Below are positions 12,001 through 63,104 of a stretch of 64,000 nt of DNA, one piece after another; the first letter of the stretch is position 1; every line of letters starts with the position of its first letter. Below the pieces are notes generated by a model. The model did no database searches and had not been told where the DNA came from. It saw nothing but the letters and a program-made list of their open reading frames with translations. This DNA comes from Bilabrum cf. latius. Lineage: Eukaryota. The DNA lies in assembly GCA_965178125.1 (NCBI GenBank), contig OZ237757.1, positions 434,001-498,000 on the forward strand, written 5' to 3'. The position numbers were made by a program, and so were the translations under genes.

Positions 12001-12437
12001 CGGCTCGGTAGGGGCACTCGGCGAGGTCGGCGGGTGGCGGCGCGGCGCCGGTGGCTGGTTTCGCTGACCCGGGCGCTGGTCCTGTGGGCGAATCGCCGCG
12101 CAGGCAGGGCACCGGCAGGGCAGGCGGAGCCGCACAGCACTCGTCACCCGCTCTCTCTCATCGAAGCGGTGGAGGAAGAGGAGGAGGTGGATCGAGCCAG
12201 GGCAGTACTCCCGCACGCAGGGGCCTCGGGAGCGGTGGGCGAGCTGCGCTGGCATCTGGCGCGTCTGCCGGTTTCACGCCCTCTCCGGCTGCGTCAACGC
12301 GCGGTTCAGCCGCGTCTACCGCAGGGCCCGGCTCTGCGCACAGCGAGGCAGGCAGGAGGCAGGCCCGGTCGTCGCTGAGCAGCGCCGCTGCCAGCATGCT
12401 TGCGGGGACCGGCTCGCCCAGGCTAGGAGGCCACTGA
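9015..12437 (+). CDS. MAP kinase (TEY activation loop) with a long Gly/Ala/Ser/Asp low-complexity C-terminal tail
   Basis: GKGAYGAV loop, then TAG 9249, then VALK, HRDLKPSNLL, DFGLAR, TEYVVTRWYRAPE; all downstream fragments in the same frame broken only by TAG (7 in total); ends TGA followed directly by TAA. Confidence 0.92.
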
Positions 12438-12552
12438 TAAAGAGATAATTGAATGTCAGTCTGTTTTACACGAGTAGACACAGGCTGAGTACCCTTGAAT
12501 CCGATACTTGCCAACTGTAACACCTCAACCGCCCTGCCGTCCGCGAGCCACA

Positions 12553-15344: not shown

Positions 15345-18300
15345 ATGGCGCACCCGGGAAGAACCATCATGCGTTCTGTGCCGACACTAGAAAGGGTTGG
15401 ACCATGGCGACGGCTGAAGGACAAACAAGGGCGGGCATTCTACTTCAACAAGGAGACAAAGGCTAAACAGTGGCAGAAACCGGCAGAAGTGGCCGAGGCC
15501 GAGCGAAGAGCTGCAGATATGAGACCAACAGCTCCACCTAGATCTGCTGCGCCCCAATTTTTACCAGCGGGAGCCTCTGCTAGAGCAGCTCTTGGCAGCT
15601 AGCAGGTCCCGCCTGGCCCGTTACCCGTAACCCGCATGCTTGGCAGGCGATCGTCCGGTGGGAGCCAATCGAGCGGAGCGGGCAGCGCCGCGCCAGGAGC
15701 GCCAAGAAGCTCTGCCGCTGGAGGAAGGGCACCAGGAATCGGCAAAAGCTCGTTGCCGTTGCCATCGCGAGGAGTATCGCAGGGCGCAAGCGGAGCAGCG
15801 GGATTGCGGCCCATGCCCGCGACCGGCGCTCCCATCACCAAGCACGGCGACTGGCGCTTAATACCTGCGAAAACCCCGGATGCAAAACCATTTTGGTATA
15901 ACAAAGCAACAAAAGCGAAGCAGTGGGGGAAGCCAGCCGAAGTGCTTGCGGCCGAGCAGCAGCAATCGCAGTCGCAGGGATCCGCAGCTGGCGCAGCCCC
16001 GAGCTCCCCGCCCATGAGGCGAGCACCACAAGCGCCGGCAGCTGCCAGCGGCACGACCGCTGGATTGCCAACAGCCAGCTCTCTTGGAACTGCCACAGGG
16101 CCAGCTACCGTACGGCTACCGTCCTCTGGCAGTGGCAGCGCTGCCCCATCGCCTGCTCCCATCACCAAGCTTGGTGATTGGCGCCTCATTCCCGCAAAGA
16201 CACCCACCGGCAAGCCGTTCTGGTACAACAAAGCTACGAAAGCAAAATAGTGGGATAAGCCTGCCGATGTTGCGTTAGCCGAGCAGCAGCAAAAGGACGC
16301 GCATGCAGCCGGAGCAACTGCTCGGGGAGGAAGCGAGCAAACAGCGAGTGCAGGCCAAAATGCAGGCGCGAAGCCAGCACCGGCACTTGAGCCAATCACG
16401 CGCCTCGGCAATTGGCGGCTGATTCCGGCCAAGCAGCAGGGTGGAAAGCCGTTCTGGTACAACAAAGAGACGAAAGCGAAGCAGTGGGGCAAACCAGCCG
16501 AGGTCATTGCAGCCGAGCACGCACGGGCGCGAGAGCAGCAAGCCGCGGAGTCATCATCTGCACCGGTTGCAACTGCATTATCCCCGTTTCCCGCGGCGGG
16601 TCCAGTGGCAGCGGAACCTGTGCAGCCTGTCACGCTGAACAAATTCGAGGGCTGGCGTCTCATTCCGGCCAAGAAGGAAGGGGCAAGGCCGTTCTGGTAC
16701 AACAAGGCCACCAAGGCCAAGCAGTGGGACAAGCCAACGGAAGTGATCCAGGAAGAAACCAGGCTGACTGCACAAGCCCAGGCAGAGGCCGACAGCGCAG
16801 CCCAGAATGCAGCAGCAGCAGCAGCAGGAGCAGGGAACACAGGGAACGACGAAGGCAGCGGCAGCGGCAGCGGCGCTCCTGCGTATCCCGGTTCCGACCT
16901 GAGTCACGCGCCCACCGACCCCGGTGTGCCGTTCCCACCCCCCTATGACCCCCCCGTGCACCTGGGTGAGGATCCAGACGAGGCAGCTGACCTGGCGGCA
17001 GCGGCAGTGAGCTCCACTGACGTGGCACCACTCAGAAAAGCAGGCGACTGGCGAATGATCCCGGCGAAAACCGAGGGCGGTAAGCCGTTCTATTACAACA
17101 AGGCCACCAAGGCCAAGCAGTGGGACAAGCCCGTGGAGTTTCTCTCGGCAGAGGAAGAAGCGCTGCAGCAGGCAAGGCAGCAAGCGGCTGATGCCGCGAG
17201 ACAGCGCGTGCAAGATGCCAGAAACCAGCAGCGAGAGCTGGACGAGGCAGCTGCGGCGATCGTCACAGCGAAGCTTGCAAGGGGGCAGCCTGCCACGGGC
17301 TGGCGCGCGGATCGCGACCCCTAGAGCGGGTACGTGTTCTACCGCAACGTGCTGTCTGGCGAGAGGCAGTGGAACAAGCCAGCGGAGCTGGAGGGGCCCG
17401 TGGCCGGCATGCCGTCCGTAGATGCCGGTGCGCCTGCCCCTGTGGCTGCCACAACACCCAAGATACCGACTACCGTCACCCCCCAGCACACCATAGTCAC
17501 TACTAATCCTGCTTCGGACGAATCTGACGGTGCAGCTGGTGGCGATGGCAGCGGAGACGGGGTCGGTCAGGACGATGGCGCGAAGCATGGCCATGGCGAG
17601 GACGATGATAAGGAGGAGGATGCGGCCAATGAAAGCGGCAAAGGCCAGGGTGAAGCTGCACCGGCGACCAAGCAACCGGCCAGGGTTACCCTAGTGTCGC
17701 CGAAGAGTGGCAGCAGCAAGAACCTAGGCTCCTTGGCGGCTGATGAGGGCGACAGTCCGGCATACGGCAGTCACACGCACGCAGCCAGGTCGGGAGGCCG
17801 GCTTGCGGCTGCCGTGAAACGATCCAGCGATGCCTCGGTGCGGGAAGCGCTAGATCAGGAGCATGATCGCAAGGAGAGAGACGCAAGCGATGCCCTGCAC
17901 GCTGCGACCGCCAGTGCCCGTGCAGCCGAAGGAGCTGCAGATGACTCCCCGCCGGAGCAGCTGGACGAGGAGGCGGCTGCTGCGGCACACGGCTAGGGAC
18001 AGGGAAGCATCGCCAAGGAGTTGGGCGAGTCCTCGCGAAGCCAGAAATAGGACCTCACCCGCAACACGGGCGATGACCCCGCTACGGGCGGTGCCGATGC
18101 TTCAGCAACGCAGGATCAAGATGACGAGGGCAGCAGGGGCCACGGGCAGTCGGACTCGCTCATGATGGGAGGTCCGGCCAGCGGGCACGGCGGACCGGTA
18201 GACGTGGCTGTGGTGAAACGCCCGGCGCTGAGGCCAGTGGCATCCGGCCTTTTTGCACCTGAAGACGACCACCTTCGTCTCGAAGGGCACCTGTACAAGC

Positions 18301-21300: not shown

Positions 21301-24017
21301 GGGCGCTGAGCCCGCTGGAGCGGCCTCGTGCCGCGGTGGCAGTGGTGGCCGGTCTCCTGGACTCGTCATGCGCCGATGAGGCACGTCTGCCCGCCTTGTT
21401 TGCTGCCGCGACTGATGCGGGTGATCTCGGCGACGAGTTTGCGACTAGGGGCACGTGGGAGTCCTCGGTGCTGTGCAGCCTGGCGCGCGCCATGTCGGCC
21501 AGGCCAGCGGTGGCAGAGTTCGTGGCGCGAGTGGCCGTGCCCCTCGTGTCGCAAGCTGTGCCTCGTGCCCTTCGACTCTGGTCCACCGGTGGTGGGCGTG
21601 GTGGTGGTGGTGGAGGAGTGCATGGGCAGCGCACCGCCCGTCGAGATGGGCTATCCAATGGCCACGGGGACCCAGGGCATTCTGGCAGTGCAAGCGGCAC
21701 GCAGGAAAGCAAAGAGGAGGGCGAGTTTGCTGACGATGGGGAACTCGATGCATCGTCCTCTCTGGAGGCACGGAGGGCGCGGACGTGGGGCGCCACGGGT
21801 ATCTTGGGCGGGGCGCAGGCGCCCGCTGCAGGGGAAGAGGAGGGCGACGATGAGACTGAGCGGGCGAGAAACGCCGCCATCCGCACCCTGTGCATCTGCT
21901 GCTTCTCCCACGGCGGAGGCGGTGGTAGCCACGTGAACGTGATGGGCGCGGGTGCTGACGTGCCTTTCGAGCTGGCACAGTGCATGGCGGCTGCAGAGCA
22001 GCGCGTAGGGGGGCGACTGGCCGCTGCCATCCTCGTGGCTGCCGTGCTGCAGCCCGCCGTTGCTGCTGTTGCGGAGCACGCGCCCAGCATGGAGCTGAAG
22101 GGGGCGCTCATGGGCCTGCTAGATGCCTGCATGGACGCTCTGTGGGCGTGGCAGGAGGCCAAGGATGACGGCAGTTTGGGCGGTGCTCTGGCGGTTGCTA
22201 GGTCCAAGCATCTGCCGGTTGTACCGCTGGTGTTAGCGGCACAAGACGCCGCCGACGCGGCTAGAATACGGGCTGTGCGAGAGCTGCTTCGGGAGGCGGG
22301 GGAGATGGGACTGGCAGGTGACGACGGAGCCCCTGCTGGCAGAGGTGCTGTTGCGAGCGGAGGCAGTCCCCGGAATCAGGGAGGACGCAGCCAGCAGAGC
22401 GAGAAAGACGTGCTGGCAGTTCGTGCTGCGGCGGCGGTGGAGGCACGGCGGCAGCTTCGCAGGCGGCTGGAGGCACGGTGCGTCGCCAGCGGGGATGGGC
22501 TCGGGCTGCTCGCAGTTGCGGTGCAGCGGTGCGCCGGCAGCATGGTCGGCGGTGCACTGCTGTCCACAGACGTACGCGAGTGCGCGTAGGCGGTACGCAG
22601 CTGGCTGGCATCTACTGCTGGTGGCAGTGGTGCTGCATCGAGCCAGGGGGCGGGATTCGAAGCGGCGGCCTCTGGGTACATGGGCCGGGGTTCGCTGGAT
22701 ATGGGGGCAAGCAGCTTGCAGGCGAAGCACGCTGCGTGGAGTCAGCTGCCCATCGTGGGACCCGGGGCAGGCGCGGACAGCTCAGAGCATTCCGACCTGC
22801 AGCTCAGGCTGACAACGTACGGCGTCATTCCCGCGCAGGTGTCTGCCCGTGACCCACCACGGCTGTCGGAGTGCATCGGCGTTGGCATAGAGGAGGCGGA
22901 GGAGGCCGCAGAGGCTGGCGTGAAGGGGGCAAGCGAAGATGGGGAGGATCTCGAGTACGAGGGCAATGACAAGGGCAAAGGCAAGGGTGCTGGCGACAAG
23001 GAGCATGGTGTGGATTCCAATGGCGGTGCTTCCAGCGGGCACTTGGCCGTCGGCGTGGATGCAAGCCTGCGCCGAGCCGCCAGCGGTCATTTCGAGATGG
23101 CGAGCGCGTCGGCAGCCGAGGGCAGGCGTGCAAAGGCAGTTCTGGAGCGGCTGCGCAGAGCAGCCGTGGAAGCTAGCCGGCAGGTGCGCCCGCCGGGCGG
23201 TGGTCCCCAGCTTGAAGACGTCCGTGGCTTTGATGCCGCGCGAGACGCTGTTCTCTTCCTGTCTGCCTCTTTGGAGCAGCTGGACGACACTGGGTCTGAC
23301 CTCCTTGCCGGCGAGAGGGGCAGAGAGGAGCTGGAGAGTCCTCGTCGGAAGGCGGTCGAGTGGTCCATGCAGGACGGCGGCGCTGCTGGCAAGGAGGCCT
23401 GCACGTCGGCGGAGCTCGGGTGCTCCGACGCTGCGGACGAGGTGCTGCGATGGTGCGTTGGCAGCGCGCTAGCGACGGCCCTGCGGCTAAGGGAGGTGCT
23501 TCGTGAAGCTTCGATCGATGCGTCCGAGAGGGCTGAATCGGCGCAGGCGGGCGCCGCTGCCGTGCTCGAGCTGGCAAGGGGGGGCGGGCCTGCGGAGGAT
23601 GCGTGGAGGTTCGTGGGCGGCGGGCTCGGCCTCTCCTTTGGGGAATCTTCGTTGCGGGCTTCCTTCGGCGCAGGGAGCGTAAGAAGTGCGGGAAAACCCG
23701 CGAGCAGCGCTGCCGGTGCTGGTGCTGGTGCTGGTGCTGCAGGAATCGCTTCACCGGGGCGCGCCACGGGCGATCTCGTCGGAACACCCCAGAGGAAGGG
23801 TGGGGCTGACGGGGGGTCAGCTGCAGGTGATGTACAGGATTAGTTTGGGAGCATGGGCGGGGACGGAGAGCAGAGCGATGATGACGACGACGATGACGAT
23901 CTCACCCTGGGCATGCTGATGGGCAGCATTTTTTCGCCGTACAAGCTCGAGAGGCAGCAGCTGCGTGACAGGGAGCGGGCTGCAGAAGGGAATGATGGGA
24001 GGCGTGATGATCTTTGA
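15345..24017 (+). CDS. ~2,890-aa protein with seven WW domains, a PH domain and a helical C-terminal region
   Basis: Fragments 15345, 15636, 16605, 17334, 18162, 19488 and 22680 are one frame broken only by 8 TAGs; ends TGA 24015-24017. WW consensus W-x(n)-F[WY]YNKxTKAKQWxKP; PH: LEGHLYKQSKSLLRLWLRRYWV..LLYW..IDLRFC..YKLRAST..ARLW. Confidence 0.88.
15405..17381 (+). repeat. Seven dispersed WW-domain coding repeats
   Basis: Near-identical units such as TGGTACAACAAGGCCACCAAGGCCAAGCAGTGG separated by Ala/Pro/Gly linkers. Confidence 0.9.
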
Positions 24018-24645
24018 TGTGGAGTAGCACAAAGGCTACGTTGTCTTACATTCCTGTGTCCACTTGCGCATTTAGCCCGTCTTCATACGATCGTCGTCAC
24101 CCGGCTGCCCAAGCACGCATATAGTCCAGCGATGCCTGTAGCACAAATAAGACCCACACCGTAGGTGCCGCTCGCCCAACAACGTGTGAGAGAATGGAAT
24201 ATACTCGAGAGTGTCCATGATTGCACCAAGCTGCAGGTCGGACACCTGCGAGAATCCTCGCCACGTTTTCATGTTCGAATGCTTCGATACGGGTTGTGAT
24301 TCGTGTGTGTGTTCCCCATCTGGATCTCGACCAAACCTGGAATGCAAATTATTTGCTGTGTACTTGTAGTACTATAATGGCCAGCGAACATCGTAGGTGT
24401 GGCATGTAGTTTGGATTGCACGTAACGCTTGACAATTATGTTAGTCCCAGGCGATGCAACGGCACCTGGGACATTGAGCATTCACAGTAGACATGGTATG
24501 CTTTCAATTTGACATTGATGTTCACCTTTCAATTAAGTGACGTCCTTCGCAGGATCGCAGCCCTACCAGTTGCTCTGCCTGCCTACATCTGGTCGCACGT
24601 TCTCGTCAAGAAGTTCGTCCAACGATATACTAATTGAGCATAGAT

Positions 24646-27600
24646 ATGGATAGTCAACAAAGCAAACGCGACGATGGGGTGGCCCGTGACGCACCGCACA
24701 CGCACACTGACCAGGCTGCTGGGCTGTCGCGGAGCGCAGACCCATCAAGAGCTTCTCCAGTTGCTGCTGCCACTGGCAGTGCCGCCACGTAGAGTCTTGG
24801 AAGCGGCGAATCTCGCTACTTGGGCCGCGAGCAATTATCAATGGAGCCGCACGACGAGCCACCGCCGCGCGATGCTCAAGCGACAACGATCGCCCCATCA
24901 GTTTACGGGTGCCAGGGAGGACCAATGGCCGGGTATGCACCTGCCACTGCCAGGCAGAGTGCGAGCGCTGGCGAGTCGCGGGAATCGGGGCAGCTGCACG
25001 CTAGCAATGCACGGACTAGAACCCAGTTACCACCAAGTTCATACGAACCCGCTGCCGATGGTGGTGATCCCACATCGTGTCGGCCTGCTGTTGCATCGTT
25101 GGAACCGTGGCAGCTCTCTGATATTACGATGCCAGCGGGCCCGTGGCATCCCCAGGTCCAGACGGGGCACGCCGGGCATCGCCCCAGACCTCCACCGGAT
25201 CCGCCAGCCCCACGCCCGCCAGCCCCGGCGCCACCACCACCGCTTCCGCGACCAGCAGCATAGTCCCGTGCTGGGCCAGGTCAACGATCGTCCCTTGCTG
25301 GTCCAGAGTCGCCGTTACTCGGACTGCCTCAGCCTGGCGGTACGGCTGGAGGGTCAGCACCGTCTTGGCACGATCAGGTATATGCTGATTTAATGGATGA
25401 TGCATGCTATCCTTCAGATATGATCAAAAAGTCAGGGATGGGCATGGCCCGTAGGCAGCTCGAATTTGAAACGGCCAAGCGCTGGGTGGCGCTGTATCCT
25501 TCCGAGCACGACGCGCGCCGGGCGAGTTTCGCTGATATCGGAGCGGGGTTCCGAAGCGACGTCATGAAGGCATTCAAGCACTTTCCCAAGGTAAGCATGG
25601 TCTGGCGGGAGGATCAGCCCATCGGATTCACTTCTGGAGATGTGGCCGCTGTTCAAGAGAGCACAGGCATCGAGTTCATCGATGCGGGTGGTCTTGCAGG
25701 TGGGCTCAAAGCAATTCACAGAGAGTTGGGCCTCTTTCTAAAATTTGCGCTGGACCAGAACGGGTACTACAAGAGCTCTCGCATGGCTGCCAAGGCAGCC
25801 AAGCGGGAGGCGGCGGCTAGTCGGTGGGTGCACGCGATGGACAGCGTGCACGTGTCAACGCCTCTGCAAGAATGCGTCGATTTAACCGTTCAGCTCGCCG
25901 GCGGTGGGGTACGAGTGGTACGCGTGCAGGTATTTGCAAGTGTCAGCATTGCCGGATACGATGCCTCTGAGCCATCAACGCTGGAATCAACGACCATGCG
26001 CGTGGGCTCCTCGGATGGTGGGTACTCTGTGCACGTCGACAGCGAGCAGATCGACAATGTCGTGAAGCCACTGGCAAAGAGATTCTTCATCGTGCCCTAC
26101 AATCGAACCGCTGAAGTTGTTATTAGGCACAAGCTGGAAGCTGGCACAACTAGTGTCGAGAGGAAAGCTCCGGGTGTGCGAGCTGTTGGCGGGGCAAGCG
26201 ACGGAAAATGTGCCGGTGTAGACAGCCACATTGCTGCTGCGGAAAGTCATACAGCAGCCTCAGGGGCTGGTGATTGTTCCAGTCCTATCGATGCTAGTAA
26301 GCAGACAGTCAAGCATGCACCATGTGAGTTGGGTTTCGGTGCTGATCAGGCTGTCAATGCAGACGACATACTTACAGCAACCAAATTCTATGCAGGAAAG
26401 CTGATCGACCACAGTATGTCGCCATACTATCACAAGGTAAATGTGATCGAAGACAGCGAGCAACAGCTTTTCTTGCCGTTTGACGTGGAGGTGCACCAGC
26501 TGGCGAGTGGGCAGCGGATGGTGCTGGACACGCACCGGCTGCTGATCCCGGACATCCCGTGGATTGACTGGATGGAGTCTGAGGAGGCCAGACCAGTTGT
26601 TTGGATGGCTCTGTCAGGCTAGATGCCGCTCATGCTGCAAGGGCAGCTCGGCGGATCCCCAGGAACCAAGAGTGAGCCCGATGTGAGCTAGCTGGCGACA
26701 CAGATGCAGGAGTGGGTGAAGGGGATAGGAAGCCCTGAAATCCCAACAGAAGTGTAGCGAAGCATTCATACGCTGTCTTTTGACCCAGCCAGCATGCGAC
26801 TGCATCGAGACTCGGGTTGTGTGGTTGCACCGTCGTCGACCCGAGGCAACGCACCCGAAGCGGTGGCCATTATAGCATGCCCTCTTTGGTATTTCTGCGG
26901 GTACCTTGCCCTTTCCTGCCTTCTTCCCCCCGAGGCTGCACGCTGTCTCGCCGAGCTCTGCGGCGGCACTGAGATAGAGGGGCTCTGCCCCGACCTCATT
27001 ATGTCTGGACGAGACAAAGGGGGCTCGAAACGGAAAGCGAGGCAGGCAATAGGCATGCTCTATGACAAGGCCCGAACGGTTGGTCCCGACCGATTCAGTG
27101 ACGAGATCGCCTTGGAGGTGTGCCGCCACCCAACGTTTGATCCAGACTGTGATGCCAGAGCACTGAGATCTGTGCTCAAGAGGACGATGCACTCAATGGG
27201 TCTCGGCTTGAGGCACGCCCGCTTGCTGCTTGCAGGACGAAACTGCGACGAAGTGTGCGCTCGACGCGTCCAATTCGCACTGGTTGGGTCTCATAATGCC
27301 TGCAAGAGGGCGGCGGTGCAATCTCTGCAGCGCATGATCCATGATCACATGGACAGCTCGACTGAATCAGGGAATCGATCGGGCAGTGCGGCAGGATTAG
27401 CCCAAGCTGCTTGCCTGTATGCATCGAAGGGCATCGTCACCAGAGCCGACGACGCTTGTCTTCAAGAGCCCGCTGGTGCCGTTGGCGGGGCTGCTGGTGG
27501 GGCTGCTGGTGGGGCTGCTGGCGGGGCTGTTGGCGGGACTGCTGGTGGGGCTGTTGGCGGGACTGCTGTTGGGGCTGGTGTTGCGATTCCTGGTAGAGCT

Positions 27601-28509
27601 GATGCTCCAGAGTGGTAGCTCCGGGCAGTTTCTGTAGCCACTGAAACATCGTGCGTTGGCGTCCAGCTCGCTGCAGAGGGCGGCATACACACGAAGACAC
27701 CTGCCCACGGCGCTGCTCAGCTCATCGAAGAGCTGGATCACATCAGGCGAGTGCCCGGTGCAGACATTCTCCCGACCTTTTGCTCGCTTGCGTCCCTCGC
27801 GACTCTCGTGGCTGGAATGCCCGTGAGCGAAAGGGATCAGGTGAGCCAAGTTCAAGATGCGGGTCATGCCAATGCCACTTCTGGAAGCGTTGGCCATGAC
27901 GACGTTCATGGTGATAGTGATGACGACAGGAGTTTGGAAGCTTTGCCAAGGCCCCTCTCTTCCTCGTTAGAGCTGGCACAGCAGCTTTCGATTCCCAATA
28001 GTTCCGCTTTCAGGATGCGAGCGCGTGTCATTAAGGCCGGGTAGCTGAGGCAGATGGGCCAGCACGACATGGCACACTTGAGGGCTGATCAGGGCATGCG
28101 GGAATAGTACTGGATTTCTGCGATCACGGTGCTGGCCGAGATACTGCAGGAAACAGGCGATTATGCGGGGGCTCTGTCGTGGTACGGCATCATTTTGGAG
28201 CACGAGGCTGACCTGCTGCCGATCAACGCCATGTCGTCTCTGTACATTTACAAAAGTATGGCGGACTGCTAGATCCAATTGAAGATGTACCCCGAAGCTA
28301 TACGGTCCCTGAAAGAGTTCATGCCGTTTCACAGGCAAAGGTTCGGCACGGGGGATCCGATCCACCTGAATGCTTTGGCGAAGCTGATCCATTGCTTTGG
28401 CGAGACACAGCGGTATGATGAAGCCATTCCGGTGATTGCTGACCTGTGGGAGCTGCAGAAGATTGCTAAACCGCTCGATATTTCGGGTCATAGAACTAGA
28501 TTTGTATAA
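24646..28509 (+). CDS. Large hypothetical protein with C-terminal TPR-like helical repeats
   Basis: ATG 24646 after an upstream in-frame TAA; fragments 24820, 25393, 26794, 27751 and 28279 in one frame with 9 TAGs; TPR-like LAEILQETGDYAGALSWY, MADC*IQLKMYPEAI, FGETQRYDEAIPV; ends at TAA 28507-28509. Confidence 0.7.
27476..27578 (+). repeat. 12-bp coding tandem repeat encoding (GGAA/GGAV/GGTA)n
   Basis: About 8 copies of GGTGGGGCTGCT-like units. Confidence 0.85.
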
Positions 28510-28683
28510 ATTATCCTGCTGCTTGGTATTGCAATAATCTTGTGTGTATAGCGAATCATCCAAATAGATCCGGAATCCGGGAGCACTTGCCCAGATCTAG
28601 CAAGCCGGAACTCACATGTTCCCATGCTCAAAGGTGAGCAGGGGAATCTAGCGGCATCCCAGCAACATCCTTTTTGTTTGAAT

Positions 28684-30577
28684 TCACGGGGATGGGTCAT
28701 ACACGAGGGTATGCGCGCTATGAGGCGGCAGCTGCAGAGTGGCCGTCTGGTCGTGGTCCACGAGTGTGTAGTTCTGCGCCGTGTCCGCGGTGTTCATCGC
28801 AACCACGACGATCTGCTGCTTGGTAGCAACTCCTGGCGGCAGCAATCCCGCCCCGGCAGGATCGCCCCCATTCTTTGGAGTAAGGAACGCAGACACGACG
28901 AGCGTCTCGTTGGAAGCGCCGGACATGGAGCACCCAATTCGGTGGGAGCCCGGAGGCACGAACTTGGAGATCTGGCCCATATAATAGTAGAAGTACTGAG
29001 GAATGATCTTCTGCTTGTCCGTATCCACCATGATCATCGCGCTGGAGCCGAACAGGTCGTACGAGATGATCGGCCCGATGTGCAGCGGGGTGCCTGCGGA
29101 GAATCGGAGCGCACGAACACAAGGAAGAGCGGGAAGGAGCCATCAAGAATGCAGCAGGCACAACACTGAACAAGTTGTAGAGTGCAGTTGATTGGTAGAG
29201 TTAAACGTCGCAATCGGGTGGCGCTTTCAAAGCAGCGTCGCAGCCACTGTCAGGCACTGTGGAATCCGGAAACATCGTTTATTCGAATCTCACCTGCCAC
29301 GCTCAGCGCCACGTTCCAATCAATAAATCCCACCGAAAATGCATTCAAATCTCCCAGGATCTCCCCAAGGTACTTTTCAGCGTCCTTCCACTCCCCTCCA
29401 GTCTCCGTGAACGTGTTGATCGCCACTGTGGACTCTGTCGAAAGGAGCATCTTGTCGGGGTACTTGTCATGAGCTGCAAGCACGTTGTCGAAATGGGACC
29501 CGTCGTACCTGCGGTGTGACGAGTATATGAATTAGACACTGTTGCTTGGTAGGGTAGCGCAGGCCGCGGGTAGCAAAAATATGCGAGCTGCATCATGTGA
29601 GCGTAGCCCAGCCAAGCCGCTCACCAGTGGTAGGCCGTGCCGGCGACGTACTGGGCGGCATCCGGGTCACCCAGAACAGTGTCGACCCACTTGGGCAGGT
29701 GCCCCTTGTTATGATCGTACTGGAAGATGTTCACCTCTGGGTGCGCCTGCTTCATGGCAGGGCCCAGGTGGTTCTTGAGCCAATCGCGCTCGGTTTCGGG
29801 CGTGAACACCATGCTCTCATATGTGAGCAGATTCTCGGTCTCTGGTTCGTTCTAGGGGGTGACTGCCCAAATGTCGAGCCCGTGCGCCTTCATTGTATCG
29901 ACATACTTGACGAAATACTGGGCGTACGAGGCCCGAATCGCCGGATCCGAGGATAGCTCGCATCCGATCAGGTACATCCAGACCGAGCACACCATCGCGC
30001 GGTTGCTCTTCATCCACCACGGCGCGCTCCAGGGAGACCCAAGAAGTTTGATCTTAGTTTCGGTGGAGTTCGGGAATGCAGCTGAGCGTGCTGCGATGGC
30101 GTCCTGGATGAATTGAATGCGACCCATCCGCACGTCGTGCTAAATAGAGAACTGGGTCAAGTTGAGGTCGCCATCGAACTCTGCGTACGAATTCGTACCC
30201 AAGCTAAAGTCACAAGCACCCATGGGAAGCCGAGCCATGCTGTATCCGAGCGAGTTCTTTCCGTAGATCAGATCCAAGAGCTGCTGCTTGCCGGCCGACT
30301 CTAGCTGGTTGTACACCCACGTCGATGACTCCGTGATGGCGCCCCCAAAGCCAAGAATTTCCTGAAATACCTGGCTAGAATTTACCGACACGATTGCGCC
30401 AGCAGCTGGGTCATCTGCATTTGGCAAGGATCCATACCCCCGAACAGTGGAAAGGCCACCGGGCGTTTGAGGTTTCAGGCGATCCCCCGTAGAGTTACTC
30501 GTCTACACGATGTAAACAACCCGTGATGCAAAAGCCACAGATGTAATCGATGCTAATACAACCGCAGACGCGGCCAT
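28684..30577 (-). CDS. Secreted glycoside hydrolase family 30 (glucosylceramidase-like); 3 exons
   Basis: Signal peptide; QEILGFGGAITES, RLPMGACDFS, SPWSAPWWMK, WAVTP*NEP (acid/base motif), AYHW|Y, LLSTES (nucleophile), IDWN, YYYMGQISKFV. Introns 29509-29624 and 29094-29293; TAGs at 30503, 30140, 29852; ends TGA. Confidence 0.93.
29094..29293 (-). other. Spliceosomal intron (GH30 intron 2)
   Basis: GTGAG...CCGCAG; joins WNVALSVAG to TPLHIG. Confidence 0.8.
29509..29624 (-). other. Spliceosomal intron (GH30 intron 1)
   Basis: GTGAG...CCGCAG; restores the conserved HWY. Confidence 0.88.
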
Positions 30578-30794
30578 TATATGCAGCTAGGAAGGCAAAG
30601 TGTTGCCGTTGGAGCGCGTTGTCTGTGCGTGGCGTGACGATCAGATTGGCAGTCGTGGCACGCGTAGCCTGATCGGCACGCAGGTTGCATGTAGTACCAG
30701 ACAACTGCAAGCCGCCTCTATATTGCAGAATGCTGCACAACCTGTTGGACAGTATTGAATGATACGCGTCAACGCATGTCGACCCCAGCACCGC

Positions 30795-33700
30795 TCACAC
30801 ACCCCTACCGTCCGCAGTGCAATCCACACCGACCGGCTCAAATGCAGGGTACACGTCCACCAGCAGAAGGTCCTGCTTGATGGCATGGTAAGGCATCGCG
30901 AGTATCCCTGGATTCCCTTTCACTCTGTACACCATAGGGCTGCCCCCTTCCGGGATTTCCTCCGCGGGTATATCCAAAGAAGGGGCCAGCTCAGGGGCAG
31001 GAGTCAGGTATCCCACCGGACTGCCAGGATCCGAAATGCCGCGGATTAGCACGGTGTCCGTGGCATTGCTCCAGCCAGACCCATCCGGTGTGACGAATGC
31101 GAGCGCCACCGGACCCTGGTGCACGGACCATCGGCTGTGGCCAGGCACCACCGTGCTGCCAGTATACTCGAACGCGTGAAGCTCCCAGGGAAGGCTCATC
31201 GAGATCGTCACACCGGATGCAGCTGCCTAGTCGTGTGGTGCGTTCTAGGACTCGGAATTGGGACGCCACCCCGCACCGGCGTCAGGTTTCTGCACGTGCA
31301 CGTAGCTCCCCGGCGTGCCGACTTGGTATTCCTTCCCGTCCACCAGCACAGGCACACCATGCTTTGCCCCGTACTGCGCCCAAAGAGGCACACGGACAGC
31401 TACGCTTCCCACGGCATACGCACTCACATTCCTTGCGATGCCAGCCGTCTCACTCGTCACACCAGGATCTCCCTCCTCGCTGGCCCACGCCCTCACCGTC
31501 ACGTTTCCTCCCCAAGGGTACGCCCCTCCCACCTGGGCCTTGAAGCCCGAGGGCAGCGAGAGCAGCGAAGGAAAGTACAGGTCCACGTGCACCTCGGTTG
31601 ACGCACTCGTCAAGCCATCACGACCACCATTCACCGACTCGGAGCCGGAAAGAAAGAAGACGTATTCGGGCAGGGACCCGAACGTCCTCGTCCCCTGGCC
31701 CTCACAGCAGTCTCCCACGTACCTGGGCGGCATCTTGCGCTTGTGCAAGGAAGTGAAGTGCCGGATGCCGCGGGTGCCGCCCGCATCCTGGGCCAGCACC
31801 ACATTCGTCAGCGAACGTTCGATTTCAAATGCGTAGGATTCGTCCTCAATCTCGCCCGTGAGTGCGCGCATCTTCTGATTCACTCGGATCCAGAAGGAAT
31901 GTCCGCAGAACTCCCCGATCGGATGACCGTGGTAGCCGCCTCCCACTGCCCCAGCGGTCAACTTGTGCGCGTCTGCCGCAGAAGATGCATCCAGTACAGT
32001 GCTAGTTGAAAGTGCACTGCTCCTTTCTTGGCGCGCGGCAGATCGCAGGCGCTTGGCGTGCTCGCTCTCGTACGACCCACCCCGAAGTGACTCAAGCACC
32101 TGCTCCCGCGGGGCCGACGGCAGGTGCTCATCATGCCAGTGGTCGTGATGATCATGCTAGTGTTGGTGCGCGGCTGCAACCACCTCATCGTGTCCCCCCA
32201 GGCGTCGCCTGGTGGGCCCCTTGCAGGCAGGGCGCACACCCTGCAGGCTGGGCATGCCTCCCTCCTCGGGAGATTTGTTCCAGTCAGCGCCATATGCCCT
32301 CGCCAAGCGAAGGTCCTGAGGGTCGAGCCCCCAATCCACCCGTGGAGCAGCCCCGCCGGCCACTTCGGTGTAGCTCTGCTGACCGGGTGCTACGGGTGGA
32401 TCATGGACCGTCGCGAATGCTTCGGTCGTCGCGTTCGGCTATTTGGGATCGAACCCATCAAAGTCGAGGAGGTAGGACCCAGGCGGGTAGAAGATGAGCT
32501 CGTTGAGCTAGATGACCCCGCTGTGGTCAATCCAGTGCTACCTGAGGGCGCTGCGCCACCCCTTGGCCGCGTTGACGTACTTGGGATCGCCCGTGAGGCG
32601 ATACATGTCGAGGTATGCGTTGATGGCAGTGCCTTCGTAGTTGTGCGGCCAGGGAACACGAGCCCACACCGCGGTTGTGTTCCCTCGGGCCAGTTCCTCC
32701 AGCCACCAGGGCTCTTCGTACAGGCTAGCCACGAGGTCAACGTCTGCCTGCGTGCCCAAGTCAGACAGGGCCATCTGCGTGTTATGTATGATCCCTTGGT
32801 AGATGAGGTAGATGAGGTGGCCAAAGAGGGGTAGCTTGCCCGTGGACTTGCCGGGGTTGTAGCCCTCCGGAAAGCGAGCTGGTGAGGGGCCCCCGTCGGG
32901 GGGAAGGAACAGAGGGAGGTAAGTCGCGTTGTTGAACCAGCTCATGTGCGCTCGCGCGACCTGGAGGGCCCCGTTGACCCCAGCGCGATCCGCGGCAAGC
33001 AGCCCGTGGATGACCCAAGATGTGACATAGTCGGGGTTCTCGTGCGAAATTGTGTCGTTCGGCTCAAAAGCCATGGCATAGCCGGCCAACGAGGCCCCGC
33101 CGGCCGATCCACCGGTGGATTGCGCTGCTCCGATCCCGCCAACGAGCGCCTCGAGGGCCCCGCGCAGGTCCTGCAGTCCACCGGCTGTGCGAGCCGGTGC
33201 ATCGGATGTATTCTATTCTAAAGATGAAGATGAAGATTCCCACTGCAGCGAGTTTCCGATGCCCATCATGACACCGCCCGCCACGGACCCACGCAACCCG
33301 CAGTCCCACCCGACAGGGACGGCGCCAGGCACCTGCCCCTTGCCTGCTCGCTCTCTGAACCAGTACAGCAGGTTGTCGGTGCCTGCGATGCCATCATCGG
33401 ATTTATTCACCCACCCGCGAAGGTACTCTACGTTGTGGACGAATGCGTCGCGGTAGACGCCCGGGAGCAGTTGCACCTAGCCCGCTCGAGGCCGCGAAGC
33501 GAGCATCGGGATCGCTGGCTACACTGATGAGTCGTTCCTCGATTGACGGCGCAAATAGTAGCGCCACCCATCTTCTGCATCTTTATCGGGACCGCCCTCC
33601 GCCAACTCAAATTCCCGGGCGTACCCCAGTAGCTCGCAAGTGCCATTCAAGATATTGAAGTTGAAGCCTACACACTCGCTTGATGCTTGGGCAGAGCAAT

Positions 33701-33881
33701 TTCCGGCGCATTCACCCGGTCCTGCTGATAATGTCTCTATTGAGCGTACCGTGGCGCCAGAGATCTTGGCATCTCTGTCACCAACGGGCTGGACATAATC
33801 AGTTGCACCTAGAATCGAGCGCTCGACGTCATCGGCAATCGCTGCTGAAGTAGCGACAAGCACGACCCCAAACGCCAGCAT
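30795..33881 (-). CDS. Secreted GH127/GH146-like beta-L-arabinofuranosidase with an N-terminal PAN/apple-like module
   Basis: Six ORF fragments in one frame joined through 9 TAGs, ends TGA; signal peptide; CAGNC..CVGFNF..CEL (PAN-like); GWDCGLRGSVAG, GEFCG, EIERSLTNVVLA, DCCEGQGTR (Glu/Cys pattern of GH127), YPWGG, VRVPLWA. Confidence 0.8.
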
Positions 33882-34179
33882 GTACTACATCAAGTACATT
33901 CTAATAACTATGCCACCCTGAAGACCTCACCAGAAGTCTTCAGGTCAATCTGTGGGATTCGATGTTAACCAGATTTGTAAAGTAAACTACACGGAACAAT
34001 ATCAAAGAGCTGTTGCAGCTAAATTTACGCAATTTTGAAGCATCTGTGGTTACTATGCGCAGGTCATACAAACCATTATAATTTGATTTATTTGAAATCT
34101 CCGTGTCTTTTGTGTGGCATTAATTAGTGCCGTATATCTGTGCTGAAGGGAATCGAATATCTTGCGACGACCCGTTACA

Positions 34180-38196: not shown

Positions 38197-38429
38197 ATGC
38201 TCGACACTTGGTAGTCTTGTCTATACTTTATCCGGAATTCGGATCCGATTCGGATACTCGGGGTCTAGGGATTAGGCCTAAGTGGTTGAAATTGCCTGGA
38301 TTGCAGCCAAAACTGTGAGCCAGGTCTGTGTTTGCACGCTTCCGGTTGGGATATCCGGCCGGCGCAAAAGATTGAAGTTGTATTATGTAATTAAGCTGAC
38401 ACAATCCAGGACGAGGATTAATTGCGTGA

Positions 38430-38700
38430 CGAGGTATAATGCAGAAACAAGCACCTCAGTGCATCCAAAGATCCAGGGATCAAACCCCGCATGTCCTGCG
38501 GAGGAAGGCGTGTGCGGAACCTGGGAGCACCGCCAGGGTGGCTATGCCCCGTGGGACAAGAGTTCCAAATACCCAGACGTTCGCACACAAGTCCCGCACC
38601 GCCATCCCATCCCTTGCTCTGTAGAACCCACGAGCCTGCTGCAAGAGTCGCGCAGGTCGCGCAGCTCTGGCAGAGCATAGTGGTGACGACTCTTGTATCA
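38430..38700. ncRNA. Candidate structured non-coding element of unknown class
   Basis: Intergenic; stems 38510-38525/38572-38588 (15 Watson-Crick pairs, two small bulges), 38640-38650/38687-38697 (11 bp, one GU) and CCGCA-tgtcc-TGCGG. No family motif recognised. Confidence 0.3.
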
Positions 38701-38825
38701 CTTCACCTTCCGGTTGTCTGACAATGCCTCGTTGCATTACAAATCGCCTCCTTCTATATCAACACACAAGCAAGGCGTCAACAGCGAAACGGCCACAGCT
38801 CTGAAGCGTGCGAAACAGCAAGCGA

Positions 38826-40727: not shown

Positions 40728-40883
40728 GGCGGCTGGGTGTGATAGCGAATTGTACGACCGAGCCATTATACGTTCTGTGATGAACCACTGTCTGGTTTTC
40801 GTGATTGTTGCGAGTGCTTTGTTTCGGAGTTTTACACTACGCATTCTTGCGGTGGCAGCCCACAGTCGCATTCAACACATGTC

Positions 40884-47157: not shown

Positions 47158-48246
47158 TCACTCTGCCATGAGCCCTAGGTACCCCTCGGGGGCTTCTGCC
47201 AGAGACTCACCGGTCACCGCGTTGTAGAAAAACTCGTCCCCGTCCTCGTCCCGCGTCTTGACCCAGTCAATCCCGCTCCCCTCTGGCACGTCGTACGAGG
47301 ACTCACCCGTCTCCTTGTCATGGAAGTAAATGCCGCCCTCGTCATCCCTGAAGATGCCGTACCTCGCTGTGATCGACGTTGCGGTCGCAGGCCCGGCCTC
47401 TGCCCCTGAGGCTGCGGCCCCACCTAGCTCATCCCCATCGGCTGATTCATGGTCTCCACCACCTGCATTTTCCGTCGTGTCGGCAGCTGATCCGCTCTAC
47501 TGGCTTGTTTCAGTGCCATCATCATCGCCATCGCCATCGCCACTAGGGTCGTCTTGGCCTCCGCCGGCTGCTTGATCGGTGGATTCTGCCGATTCGCGAG
47601 AGCCTAACGAGCTGCCAGCAGAGCGGGCACGATTCTTTTTCACTAATAGGGTGGCGCTACTTCCCCCAGCGGCGTCCTCGCTGCCCTCTCCTTTCATGCT
47701 GCGGAATTTGCTTCCAGTGCTGCCAGACGAATCGGCAGATCTAGACTACTCGCCGGACTTCTGCTGTACATTCCCAAGGCTCTTGAGAGGATTGGTTTTC
47801 TTTAATTCATCCTGTGTCTCCTCTTCTGCGACTTCCATATCAAGCAGCTTTGCCTGCCTAGCAACAATCGTACGCGCGCTGGTTTGCTTTATCATACCGC
47901 CGCGAGTCGCCCTGGTATCCAGCGGCCGCCGCGATACCACATCACCGTTATTACTTTGTCCACCAGATCGCGCGCCAGCTGCTGCAGAGCCAGCATTTCT
48001 GTTTGCTCGCATTGGATTCACACCATGAAGTGGGTCCTAGTCCGAAGGGCCCCCACTGCTGTCTTCTGCAGGCTATTTGTCGAGACAATATGACTTGACA
48101 GCGAAATATGCCCCAGCAATAAGTGCAACGACAACAACCATTACGCCAAACCCTATTCCAATCCCCGTTCCAAACTCGGCAATGTCAAACCCTGACCCTT
48201 CGCTGCTTCCTTCGGGAGTAGTTCCATTGCCAGCGGCCGAGGACAT
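47158..48246 (-). CDS. Single-pass membrane protein with two C-terminal WW-like domains
   Basis: ATG 48246 downstream of an in-frame TAA; TM GIGIGFGVMVVVVALIAGAYFAV; 4 TAGs; DDEGGIYFHDKETGESSYDVP and WVKTRDEDGDEFFYNAVTGES; ends TGA. Confidence 0.72.
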
Positions 48247-48816
48247 ACCGCCACGAACAACTTCGAAATTGACGGTTTAACCGAACCCAGTCGAATATAT
48301 CGTCCAGAACGACGTGTTCGCCAGACTAGCGGGGTGCTGTCTGCGGCGCAGACGCGGTGTCTTTGCTGGCCACGTTCGCCACGAACCCCAGCGAACCATG
48401 GATCACCGCCACGCACCAGATGGGTCAAACGGTGAGGATACTAGTGCCCCAACAGTCTGAATTAGAAAGGTCTGGAGCTGTACACCTCGCGGCAGCGGCC
48501 CTACCGAAGCCAACGGCCTTGTAAACCTGCTTGCGCGGCGTGGTTCCCAATGGCAGGCCTTCGCCCCCTGTGGTGCTAGCTTGCCCGGGCGGAATGCGGC
48601 ATGCAGTGGCCCTGCACAGCAGCCGTATCAGGCGATGCTTCTGCATTGTGTGTACAAGCTGCATGCGCTATTCTGACTGTCCCACCGGTATGCAGCGCGG
48701 CCACCCACCCGCCTTGCCACCCTGCCCCACCCACCCGCAGTTTCGCCGCGCGTCGCTCGTCAGCGCCGGAAAGGCGAGGAAACGCGCAAGGTTCGACAGC
48801 CACAGTGCTGGTACTG

Positions 48817-51380: not shown

Positions 51381-53915
51381 ATGGAAAAACCTGTAACACT
51401 TTTAAGCTGCGATGCCCTTGCGAGGCTGCTGCCCACGAGCGAGACTGCATTCCCAGGGTCGGACCGTGCTCACAGGCAAGGCTCTCGTTCAGGCAAAGGA
51501 GGGAAGACTAACAGAAGAGATGGCAAGGCAGGCAAGTTAAGGTATCGGCTAGAAGGAGTAAGAGGTGCGGAAATCGGCGAATCGTATGCGACGGATGTGT
51601 CGCAGAGCTTTCGCAAATTCGTGCACCCAACGGGTATCCCAGCTGGCGGTGTCGTCGCGCTACGAATTCCGGATGCATCCAGTTTTGAAAAGTCTTATAG
51701 AGACAAAAAACACCATGCTATCCCAAACGCTGTTCGAGGAGCCAGAAATAGGTATGGAGCACCCGCTGGCCGGTACTTGGCGAACGACGACGCGTACGTT
51801 GTGGACCCACCAGCTTAGAGTCCCGCAAGCAGTCGCGAGCAGAACCTTTCTGTGCGCAAATCAGAAACAATTTTTGTCGGTAGCCGTGCATTGGTGCCTA
51901 CGCGCTCGTATTTTGTGCGAAATGCTCGGCAGATGGTACTGAGCCAAGACTACGCCGGCATGCAGCGAGACCGCGCGCGGCGCGCCAAACAGGTGAGGAC
52001 GCAGTAGCTGAGTGCAAAGCAAGCGCAGGAAGAGGAGGAAGAAGCCGCTGCAGAACGACTGAACGTTAGCAAGGAGCAGCTCAGGCAGTTTGTCAAGGAG
52101 CAGGAGCAGCTTAAGCACTCAAAGGAGACGACCGAGCAGCTGCTCGCCCGCCGAGACACGTTCGAGACGGGCTGGCTGCAGCCCGACCAGGTGCGCTCCG
52201 CTCTATCCAGAGCACCCAAGGCAATTCGCATAGCCCCAGACGCCGTGGAAGCTTTACTATCTTAGCTGCCATCTCGATCGAACGGCTCAGTGTACTACAG
52301 GAGGCTGCCCGGACTGGCCGTCAAGATGGGTGTGCTGCACACTGCAAGTCGAGCGAAGCATCAGGAGCAGCGAGCACCAGTTCGCATTGTTGCAGTTGCT
52401 AGCAAACACACCGGCGATTTGGCCCGCGAATCTGCAGTCGAGCGCACGGTGGGTGGCTTCAGCCGAAGAAACCCATGGTCCATTGTTGGAGCCGGGGTAG
52501 GCGCAGCAGGGGTCAAGATGGGAGAGCCGCTCGGTTCTGAGTTGTACCCTGCAACCAAACAGGCCATGGGGCCTTTAGGTCGTGCTGCGGTTCCCACCAA
52601 AGAAGCGGGCACCGTCAGTACTTCATACATGTCCTCAATCTACACCAAGGGGGACTCAGCCGGGGTGCCATTTGCAGGGGTGGACGGATTGGGAAGGAAG
52701 CACAGGGACATGCACGCTATGAAACACGAAGCAAGGACCAGAGGCCTGCTGGGTCCCGGTCCGATCCGAGATCCCGAGTCCAGGGGCAGGCCTCGCTCGT
52801 CTGCTTTCGGGACGGCGGGCCAGGGCGCGTGGGAGCCGCTGCCCGACGGTGCCGGCGGGCAGCCCGTTGTCTCACATGTGGCGATAGAAGCAGACAGTGC
52901 GGCTCCTAGAGCCAACGGGTTGCCACTTTTGATGCAGGCTCCGCGTCCTGATAAAAACGCGGAGCAGGCTGAGCAGACGACGGGGCAGCAATTGGAGTCG
53001 CGCATCCCTGTAGCGGGGGGTGTGCGAGCAAAAACGATTGCAGAGGAGGTGCCGCAACCCGCAAGCCAATCCCCGGAAAAAGAACCAGAGACAGAGCTCA
53101 ATTCAAATCTAGGAACATCGGTATGGCAGTTGCAGCAATCGCAAGCGGTGGCAACAGGCGAGAGCCTGCTTCACGCGGCCAGCGTGGGCATGCGTATCGT
53201 AGAAGAAGATGAGCTAGAGCAGCCAGCAACGTTAGCGCAACCAGACACTCGGTATGATGGTGGTGTCATCCCGCCTTCGTTCAATGCTTCGTTGCTGCAC
53301 CAGCATGGTTCCCTCGAAGGCGGCTCATCAGGCACGGCACCTCAGGAGGAGCATCACGGGGAGGGGCGCCGAGCACTTGCCCCGGGGAGTCCGCACCACC
53401 CAAGCTCCAGCAAGCTGGTGCCCTATGAGCAACATGGACGAAGATCTGAAAAGCATGGATAGGTCATTGTCTAGAGCAACGATACAGTGGCGCAGGACGC
53501 CTTCGGGGACCGGGCGGTTTCGGCTGGATTCGCAGGCACACTCGAGCCGAGGAAGCCCAGGGCACGAACATTCCGAGAGAAAATGATCAGCCTGCGGCTC
53601 GGGGCCGATAAGTGTGCCGCGGTGCTCGGAAAAGTGCATCGTTCCTTTCTGCTGGTTGCATTCACGAAGTGGCACCGTGCATCCGACGCGATCGGGGAGC
53701 AGCAGCAGGCGAGGCGATTCCTGCAAGCGCGGGCCCTCCGGCAATTCTTGTCGGTAGTGGAGCAGGCGACCGAGCGCCTCATTGGGTACAAGTTCGAGCT
53801 GTGGCGTGACACCGTGATGGACAAGTCCTGGAATCCGTTTGGCCCGCCTGACGTGGACTCGGACGACTCGGAGGCGAGCAGCGCAGATGAGTTCGATGAT
53901 GACGAGATCCTGTGA
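51381..53915 (+). CDS. Hypothetical protein (coiled coil and a possible degenerate EF-hand)
   Basis: Fragments 51249, 52290 and 53487 in one frame with 5 TAGs; RDTFETGWLQPDQVRSAL resembles an EF-hand loop; ends TGA. Confidence 0.65.
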
Positions 53916-62134: not shown

Positions 62135-63104
62135 TCAGGGCTTCGCAGCATCGATGGCCTTCCTAATCTCCTCGGCGTGCGCAGCGCCCGCCGCGTCCGC
62201 AGTGGCCTTGCCTTCCTCCTCACCGTGCTTCTCGGCATCCCCAGCATTCTTGGACACCTCGTCCACGCCACCCTTGGCCGTAGAGGCGTGCTCCTACCCG
62301 GCCTCGTCGGCCGATTTCCCAGCCTCTTCCTCCGAGACGCCCCCTGCATCCTTGTCGTTAGACACCGTGATGTGGGTGCTCGTCTCGGTCACGTGCTCAC
62401 CGTGCTCGTTTGTGTGAGTTTTCGTCTCAGTCTTAAGGTTCACGTGCTTCTTCTGCGCGCAGGGCACGTCGTCCTCGCACTTGAGCTGGCAGTCGGGCCG
62501 CGGGCAGTCCGATGGCTTGTGGCAGCTCCACTCGCATTCCACGTCCTCGCACTTCACCTCGCACTTGGCTGACGGGATGGAAGGCACGGTGACGCCACAC
62601 TTGGGAGGCTTGCACACGGTCTCGCATTGCGGGCAATCCTCTTTCTCGCACACGTCCTCCGGGCACTGGACCTCGCACGCGGGCTCCTCACTGCGATCCG
62701 AGAGAGCAGGCGCAGCAACACGGCAAATGAAAATACGTGAGATGAACTAGATACGAGCGGGTAGTACATGTGCAAGTAGTACATGTGCAATGCTCTAGAC
62801 TACTTACCAGCTCGTTTTCGTGGACAGTTCATGCTCTTCGCAAGTGGTTTGGCACTTGGGTGCCTTGCAGACCGGGTCGCATACCTGCATGAGCATGAAT
62901 TGAACAAGGGTACGCGGAACTAGGCGCCTAAATGAATAACGCGCAATGGTATCCCGAATGGAAGCAGGTACAGAATCTCACCTGAGGGCATACTGGGTCT
63001 GTGCACTCCCATCGGCATACTGGGTGGCAAGACTCGTCAACTTCACCTTCCTATGCGTACGCAACGGACAAGAAAACGAAAGAAGCAACAGTAAGCAGCC
63101 TCAT
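62135..63104 (-). CDS. Secreted cysteine-rich (CxxxC repeat) protein with an acidic/His tail; 3 exons
   Basis: MRLLTVASFVFLSVAYA*EGEVDESCHPVCRWECTDPVCPQ|VCDPVCKAPKC..; introns 62885-62981 and 62691-62807 keep the Cys register; TAGs 63051 and 62294; ends TGA. Confidence 0.82.
62691..62807 (-). other. Spliceosomal intron (Cys-rich protein intron 2)
   Basis: GTAAG...TCGCAG; contains a 15-bp tandem duplication GTAGTACATGTGCAA x2 (62761-62790). Confidence 0.8.
62885..62981 (-). other. Spliceosomal intron (Cys-rich protein intron 1)
   Basis: GTGAG...ATGCAG; joins CPQ to VCDP. Confidence 0.8.

Follow-up and report, generated by a model that had tools for sequence, protein, structure and literature searches.

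Can a nuclear genome read UAG as an amino acid and still use UAA to end its proteins? This question is raised by a stretch of 64,000 nucleotides (nt) of Bilabrum cf. latius contig OZ237757.1 (the window, whose own numbering is used throughout), in which coding frames contain TAG and no TAA and in which a single gene, encoding a CLU/TPR protein, closes with TAA. Nuclear codes that split UAG from UAA were unknown until 2017 and are still few, and each independent case probes how firmly the two codons are tied together by transfer RNA (tRNA) wobble and the single eRF1. We consider it likely that the window uses a nuclear code of the type formalised in NCBI table 15, with UAG as a regular glutamine codon, UGA as the terminator of about 95% of genes and UAA as an undecoded, rare terminator. 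The gene and the codon on which the question turns are the following.

24646..28509, plus strand: CLU/TPR gene of 1287 codons, with nine in-frame TAGs and no in-frame TAA (Pfam CLU 5.1e-10, TPR_12)
28507..28509, plus strand: TAA closing the CLU/TPR open reading frame after AGA TTT GTA, the only TAA terminator among 21 genes

TAG and TAA within coding frames

The window is eukaryotic nuclear DNA, gene-dense and intron-poor, with a GC content of 57-68% (measured in 4-kb windows) and of 61.5% within coding sequence (CDS). Open reading frames (ORFs) of at least 300 codons cover 37,386 nt under the three standard stops versus 83,034 nt with TAG open, and long ORFs emerge only when TAG is read as sense. 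Across a curated set of 20 gene models (17,838 codons, with RNA-supported splice joints used for the GH30 gene and the CDK gene), we count 102 in-frame TAGs and not one in-frame TAA, in line with an earlier note on this DNA that had seen no TAA inside a coding region. Every one of the 20 models, including genes with strong Pfam domains, carries at least one TAG, which makes up 12.8% of glutamine codons (102/798). With TGA as the sole stop, the only long gene ORF to contain TAA is 24541..29169, which holds two (at 24631 and 28507).

The distribution over reading frames points the same way. In 51,081 nt of single-exon CDS, TAA occurs 0, 60 and 65 times in frames 0, 1 and 2, and TGA 0, 273 and 335 times, whereas TAG occurs 97, 139 and 84 times. 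The counts for TAA and TGA are thus alike and those for TAG unlike them, which indicates that TAA behaves as a stop and TAG as a sense codon. A-ending codons are otherwise in regular use: CAA accounts for 24.1% of CAR codons, GAA and AAA for 29% and 25% of their pairs and NNA for 30.6% of all NNR codons, the lowest pair being that of CTA at 17%. At the usage of CAA, about 32 TAAs would be expected, and none is observed (P(0) = (1-0.241)^102 = 5.8e-13). The absence of TAA from frame 0 is far beyond chance.

A relative of the window shows the same pattern. A scan of metagenome contigs for the family of the GH127-like gene yielded 80 loci, of which 13 were checked for in-frame stops. Only two of these (L001 and L002) contain in-frame TAG and no other stop; eight are stop-free, and three have mixed stops that probably reflect introns or frame breaks. 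L001 (1-5993) and L002 (1-2391) come from different samples, are identical where they overlap and have a GC content of about 60%. They share with the window the gene order ankyrin gene, GH127-like gene, GH30 gene, at protein identities of 64-69%, and their GH127-like gene also terminates in TGA. We take them to represent a related species from other samples that likewise reads TAG as sense. The four stretches orthologous to the window contain 6, 9, 6 and 2 TAGs and no TAA (in 733, 1114, 495 and 196 codons, which partly overlap and amount to about 2,000 non-redundant codons). That UAG is sense and UAA is not, and that the two are hence decoupled, is well supported for the window and one relative. 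Within this scope the decoupling proposed in the earlier note (TAG = Gln, no sense TAA) is supported.

We further note that the TAGs are retained in transcripts. Sequencing runs X5-X7 carry no RNA label on record and are regarded as transcript assemblies because their contigs are spliced: the contigs lack both GH30 introns and an intron of the CDK gene, all GT..AG, and those of X5 also lack a GT..AG intron upstream of the CLU gene. Out of 32 TAGs in six genes, 27 lie within X5 contigs, unspliced there and with no differing letter. The UAGs are present in mRNA and are neither edited nor spliced out. Along genes of more than 300 codons they are spread over all deciles (15, 9, 9, 8, 13, 10, 10, 4, 13 and 6), and a TAG within the last 12 codons is found in two of 21 genes versus about 1.5 expected. 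This even spread gives no sign of remaining termination at TAG in what is a small sample. An ambiguous stop/sense code of the Condylostoma or Blastocrithidia type finds no support here, as TAG is not enriched at ORF ends in these 21 genes, again a small sample.

The underlying DNA recurs in other sequencing runs, with 100% of sampled words of 24000-31000 present in four DNA runs and no differences from the window on long pieces of runs X5-X8, which for that reason offer no comparison for the TAA at 28507. As a separate observation, the sequence of 24000-43999 is found, without differences on long pieces, in runs X1-X8, which belong to four studies and stand under four coded organism labels; this may mean an organism that is associated with other organisms, on or inside them, or samples that are mixed.

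The amino acid encoded by TAG can be approached through alignments of the window with itself and with its relatives, which include the following three places.

54628-55725, minus strand, and 55841-56953, plus strand: head-to-head paralog pair with TAG columns CAG/TAG, TAG/CAA and TAG/TAG
16248..16250, plus strand: TAG in a WW-like repeat column of a giant WW/PH protein with six repeats, where the five sister repeats have CAG
28105..28107, plus strand: TAG in the CLU/TPR gene, aligned with Q in the database fragment P0011

Taken together, the paralogs and repeats of the window place TAG opposite CAG six times and opposite CAA once, with one further TAG/TAG column. In the alignments with L001 and L002 (2,214 codon pairs), TAG has 28 canonical partners, which are Q (7), G (6), E (5), D, A and T (2 each) and S, V, H and R (1 each), next to two TAG/TAG pairs. 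When each amino acid is scored by its log-likelihood (lnL), based on its empirical substitution profile in the same alignments, glutamine is best (-71.4) and glutamate next (-80.9, a gap of 9.5 units), with leucine and serine far worse. The fragment P0011, which came up when the 202 C-terminal residues of the CLU/TPR protein were searched exhaustively against protein sequences, is 72 amino acids (aa) long and 93% identical. Its end falls exactly before the next TAG of the window (28270), where gene prediction under the standard code would cut a protein from a relative that shares this code. Distant homologs are mixed, with Q,Q at two of six alignable columns in the two nearest. Alignments with PDB entries (for MAPK, aldehyde dehydrogenase, GH30 and GT4) place the TAGs at variable or Q/K/E columns and do not decide the amino acid. 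On the evidence of the paralogs and repeats, the relative and P0011, TAG reads as glutamine.

The TAA at 28507 and the use of stop codons

The census indicates that TAA is not a sense codon. Whether it works as a stop depends on the 3' end of the CLU/TPR gene, which converges on a GH30 gene.

30577-29623, 29506-29293 and 29092-28684, minus strand: GH30 gene in three exons, with spliced contigs in X5, X6 and X7; joined CDS of 525 aa (Pfam GH30 5.7e-47), terminator TGA at 28686-28684, 3' untranslated region (UTR) of at least 158 nt
28500..28525: 26-nt stretch without an RNA contig among those listed, between the convergent CLU/TPR and GH30 contigs

The coding signal ends at the TAA. A coding score based on codon usage and trained on the other 18 ORFs is +0.178 per codon in the 100 codons before 28507, which equals the average of sense windows, and falls to -0.041 per codon for 28510-29166, below all 66 sense windows. 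Reading through the TAA would extend the frame as far as the TGA at 29167-29169, with 486 bp of overlap with the GH30 coding sequence (close to the 490 bp estimated earlier). The extended frame would lie antisense to the last GH30 exon, which is homology-supported and RNA-spliced. Record 1 of X5 is an RNA contig that covers 26523-28499 without differences. The CLU/TPR contig thus ends at 28499 and the GH30 contig starts at 28526, and among the contigs listed none bridges them. This hints only weakly that the CLU mRNA stops short of the TGA at 29169, as contigs cannot prove where an RNA ends. In a second convergent pair the contigs end at 38314 and 38394, 79 nt apart, and the near-abutting 3' ends of both pairs suggest very compact intergenic regions. 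Among ORFs with a positive coding score, that of the CLU/TPR gene is the only one closed by TAA. We conclude that TAA probably works as a terminator, on the strength of one gene.

A 48-nt intron at 28504-28551 that would remove the TAA was considered and rejected. It would begin with GTATAA, which does not resemble the 5' splice sites of this DNA (GTGAG and GTAAG), no RNA joint is reported there, and the frame beyond it is antisense to GH30. A search near 3' ends for the poly(A) signals TGTAA or AATAAA found no consistent motif. Further upstream in the CLU/TPR gene, the segments 25797-25851 and 26503-26558 stand out by a depth of 200-600 in RNA runs versus 11-60 nearby, with many alternative letters and joints to other sequence; they look like a motif common to many transcripts, from a multi-copy family or a repeat.

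The remaining TAAs of interest, and the gene that completes the terminator tally, are listed here.

12435..12440, plus strand: TGA TAA tandem at the end of the MAPK gene
24631..24633, plus strand: in-frame TAA in the 5' leader, 15 nt upstream of the CLU/TPR ATG
24132..24185, plus strand: upstream exon with an ATG, in the CLU frame after removal of intron 24186-24552 (GT..AG joint 24185>24553 in X5)
48277..48279, minus strand: TAA in frame with the WW-domain gene 47158..48246, 33 nt before its ATG
62135..63094, minus strand: three-exon Cys-rich gene ending in TGA, with exon borders read from the sequence
62804..62806, minus strand: TAA inside the GTAAGT 5' splice site of the second intron of the Cys-rich gene, assigned as non-coding by sequence reading only

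The 20 curated models end in TGA 19 times and in TAA once; with the Cys-rich gene the tally is 20 to 1 (n = 21), close to the earlier count of about 21 genes ending in TGA and only the TPR gene in TAA. Of TAA and TGA taken together, TAA makes up 17% in the out-of-frame positions of CDS and 31% in non-coding DNA. The probability of at most one TAA among 21 terminators is 0.004 against the non-coding share and 0.106 against the CDS share, for which the depletion is not significant. The next in-frame stops past the real ones, found within 50 codons in 12 of 19 genes, are TAA six times and TGA six times, which differs from the 1:20 of the terminators (Fisher P = 0.0047). The proposed collapse of stop usage onto UGA thus stands as a count and is borderline as a statistic. 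TAA is probably avoided as a terminator, and 21 genes cannot separate a rare stop from an unassigned codon. The earlier sightings of TAA as a second stop after TGA and upstream of start codons were accurate, with the tandem at 12435-12440 and the leader codons at 24631 and 48279-48277 (minus strand) all present. Around 62804-62806, the ORF piece upstream scores -0.113 and the piece downstream +0.253.

In the code that we favour, UAG would be read by a tRNA-Gln with the anticodon CUA, which by the reasoning of PMC5304391 could not pair with UAA. Such a tRNA would be one anticodon change away from tRNA-Gln(CUG). The matching eRF1 would have lost recognition of UAG and kept that of UGA and of at least some UAA. 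The earlier note had proposed a similar pair, a CUA-only tRNA-Gln and an eRF1 that rejects G in the third position. UAA terminators are probably scarce through GC pressure together with selection, the latter acting against a stop that now lies a single mutation away from sense and may be less well recognised.

Several points weigh against this reading. The use of TAA as a stop rests on one gene, the sole case among 21 terminators, as the earlier note had itself cautioned, and its depletion is not significant by the CDS-based test given above. The X5 contig ends 8 nt before the TAA, which leaves the codon itself outside the RNA contig, and contigs cannot define RNA ends. No ortholog marks the C-terminus of the CLU/TPR protein: residues 300-1287 gave one match, the only full-length homolog, at 25% identity, whose alignment ends at residue 872, and for the last 202 residues there was no word-indexed match, the exhaustive search returning generic TPR proteins and P0011 with the C-terminus uncovered. 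The ATG at 24132 lies in the CLU frame with only the TAA at 24631 in between, which would be a sense TAA, the sole candidate for one in the window, if that ATG were used and the TAA read through. The 64-kb window contains no tRNA gene detected by ARAGORN and no Rfam match, and no eRF1 gene is found among its Pfam-scanned genes. The census as a whole covers 64 kb and 21 genes.

An alternative that we hold to be unlikely is that UAA is effectively unassigned and nearly extinct, with UGA as the sole efficient terminator. The TAA at 28507 would then be a tolerated weak stop, a recent mutation or a codon at the very end of the mRNA, and the lineage would be an intermediate in which UAG has been captured and UAA is free for later capture. 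One TAA among 21 terminators fits this picture, as do the Fisher test (P = 0.0047) and the binomial test against the 31% non-coding share (P = 0.004). The CLU contig ends 8 nt before the TAA with the next listed contig beginning 17 nt after it, and the CLU 3' UTR would be unusually short next to those of four other genes (at least 43, 120, 160 and 434 nt). However, the depletion disappears as a significant result against the 17% out-of-frame share (P = 0.106), the coding signal ends at 28507 as expected of a functional stop, the MAPK gene closes with a TGA TAA tandem (12435-12440), and 21 genes are too few to tell rare from unassigned.

The ordinary code in which both UAR codons are glutamine (NCBI table 6), with TAA made very rare by GC pressure or by a scarce tRNA-Gln(UUA), is improbable. 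The GC content of 57-68% in the window and 61.5% in CDS would favour it, and so would the in-frame TAA at 24631 between the upstream ATG and the annotated CLU/TPR ATG. Yet A-ending codons are not that rare: the census finds no TAA where the CAA share of 0.241 predicts about 32 (P = 5.8e-13), and even at a share of 17% the probability of none in about 100 would be near 1e-8. The same CDS holds 125 TAAs out of frame, and the relative (L001/L002) has TAG and no TAA in all four orthologous stretches. The leader around 24631 is itself non-coding by score, with -0.52 per codon for 24553-24645 and -0.30 per codon for the exon 24132..24185; the contig behind the joint 24185>24553 has only 27 nt on its shorter side, and we read the region of the 24132 ATG as 5' leader or a 44-codon upstream ORF. 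That there is no code change at all and the in-frame TAGs are introns, U-to-C RNA editing, pseudogenes or assembly errors, an idea raised because introns exist in this genome and for which no support was found, is extremely improbable given the 27 of 32 checked TAGs that stand unspliced and unaltered in RNA contigs, the TAGs in all 20 gene models (some with strong Pfam domains), the four DNA runs that hold all sampled words of 24000-31000 and a syntenic relative that carries TAGs too and shares two TAG columns with the window.

Comparison with known codes

The list of precedents in the earlier note (Iotanema and a few ciliates) is out of date, as reassignment of UAG alone is now reported in at least eight lineages (PMC11687900). 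One close parallel is Iotanema spirale (Fornicata), in which UAG encodes glutamine and UAA and UGA are stops, UAA being predominant (Panek et al. 2017; PMC5304391). The reasoning from a tRNA-Gln(CUA) and an altered eRF1 was made for Iotanema and for the rhizarian exLh (PMC5304391). Iotanema resembles the window in the change of UAG alone to glutamine, the absence of in-frame UAA and the mechanism proposed (PMC5304391). It differs in that UAA is its main terminator, whereas the window, at about 60% GC, ends 20 of 21 genes in UGA and one in UAA, and in that it is known from a transcriptome only, whereas the window is genomic DNA (PMC5304391).

Among ciliates, Hartmannula sinica, Trochilia petrani and Protocruzia tuzeti also use UAG for glutamine and keep UAA as a stop (PMC11687900). 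Their codon table is the same as that of the window and most of their genes carry UAG, as here; the shares of glutamine codons supplied by UAG are of a similar order, 18.5% and 31.8% in those ciliates (PMC11687900) and 12.8% in the window. UAA closes 86.9-98.3% of genes in the five phyllopharyngean genomes with a reassigned UAG, and McGowan et al. (2024) argue that such heavy use as a stop fixes UAA and prevents its later reassignment (PMC11687900). UAA is likewise the predominant or dominant stop in the rhizarian exLh (PMC5304391). The window reverses this pattern of UAA-heavy lineages with a UAG-only change, being GC-rich, dominated by UGA and almost without UAA stops. Ciliate macronuclear DNA is typically AT-rich, and the composition of the window is unlike it.

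Formally, the codon table of the window is identical to NCBI table 15 (the 'Blepharisma' code), with TAG as glutamine and TAA and TGA as stops. The attribution of that table to Blepharisma was an error (PMC5304391), and the table has also been predicted for crAss-like phages (PMC9523058). The window differs from those phages in being a eukaryotic nuclear genome with spliceosomal introns. The phage cases of table 15 involve bacterial-type release factors.

Codes of the table 6 type are described from many ciliates, hexamitin diplomonads, Streblomastix, ulvophyte green algae and Amoeboaphelidium protococcarum (PMC11687900). They share with the window UAG as glutamine and UGA as a terminator, and depart from it in that UAA is also glutamine, against no TAA in 17,838 codons here. 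Other changes confined to UAG give leucine (the rhizarian exLh and phyllopharyngean metagenome-assembled genomes from TARA) or serine (Scotinosphaera), and in the ciliate PL0344 UAG is glutamate and UAA lysine (PMC5304391; PMC11687900). All of these split UAG from UAA as the window does, with a different amino acid; glutamine outscores glutamate here by 9.5 lnL units. A search of full-text literature (of incomplete coverage and with supplements outside its scope) found no GC-rich or non-ciliate lineage with UAG as glutamine and UGA-dominant stops. The code of the window is a further case of a known but rare type, with an unusual stop-codon economy.

With almost no UAA stops, the barrier to a later reassignment of UAA that is described in PMC11687900 is almost absent here. 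A lineage of this kind would make the stepwise route to UAR as glutamine (UAG first, UAA later) directly testable. An extension, possible but in our view doubtful, is that the lineage is a living intermediate between the standard code and UAR as glutamine, with UAG already taken over by a tRNA-Gln(CUA), UAA nearly gone from terminators (1 of 21) and missing from sense positions, UGA as its single working stop and UAA free for the next capture. If true, this would make it the opposite of all described UAG-only lineages, in which heavy use of UAA as a stop is thought to be locking. A practical consequence of the code is that gene prediction with standard settings will break up almost all proteins of this organism and its relatives, as has already happened to the 72-aa P0011.

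Neighbouring genes and further observations

The ORF products scanned against Pfam are ordinary proteins of eukaryotes and include a MAP kinase, a CDK-like kinase, the CLU/TPR protein, a PCIF1-type protein, the GH30 protein and a GH127-like enzyme, along with an alpha-L-fucosidase, an MFS transporter, a GT4 glycosyltransferase, an aldehyde dehydrogenase and WW, PH, ankyrin and IBR proteins. The top PDB matches for the MAPK and the aldehyde dehydrogenase are plant enzymes, which hints only weakly at taxonomic affinity.

The head-to-head genes at 54628-55725 and 55841-56953 encode near-identical proteins of 366 and 371 residues, 306 of which are identical. Their N-termini resemble signal peptides, and Pfam assigns them to no family. 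The two genes arose by a recent inverted duplication. The product of the Cys-rich gene (62135-63094, minus strand) is secreted-looking, Cys-rich and then acidic, and is without a Pfam match. Its introns begin with GTGAG and GTAAG, and a TAG lies four codons past the likely signal peptide.

Two further gene ends deserve mention. At 40695-40871 (minus strand), the fucosidase transcript contig in X5 has 30 letters beyond 40695 that are absent from the window. An intron is therefore probable in the 5' part of the gene, whose true start may differ from the ATG at 40871. At 53916-54098 (plus strand), the frame of gene 51381..53915 continues without a stop for the 60 codons directly past its TGA, at a score of +0.131 per codon, which could be chance or UGA readthrough in a stretch too short to judge.

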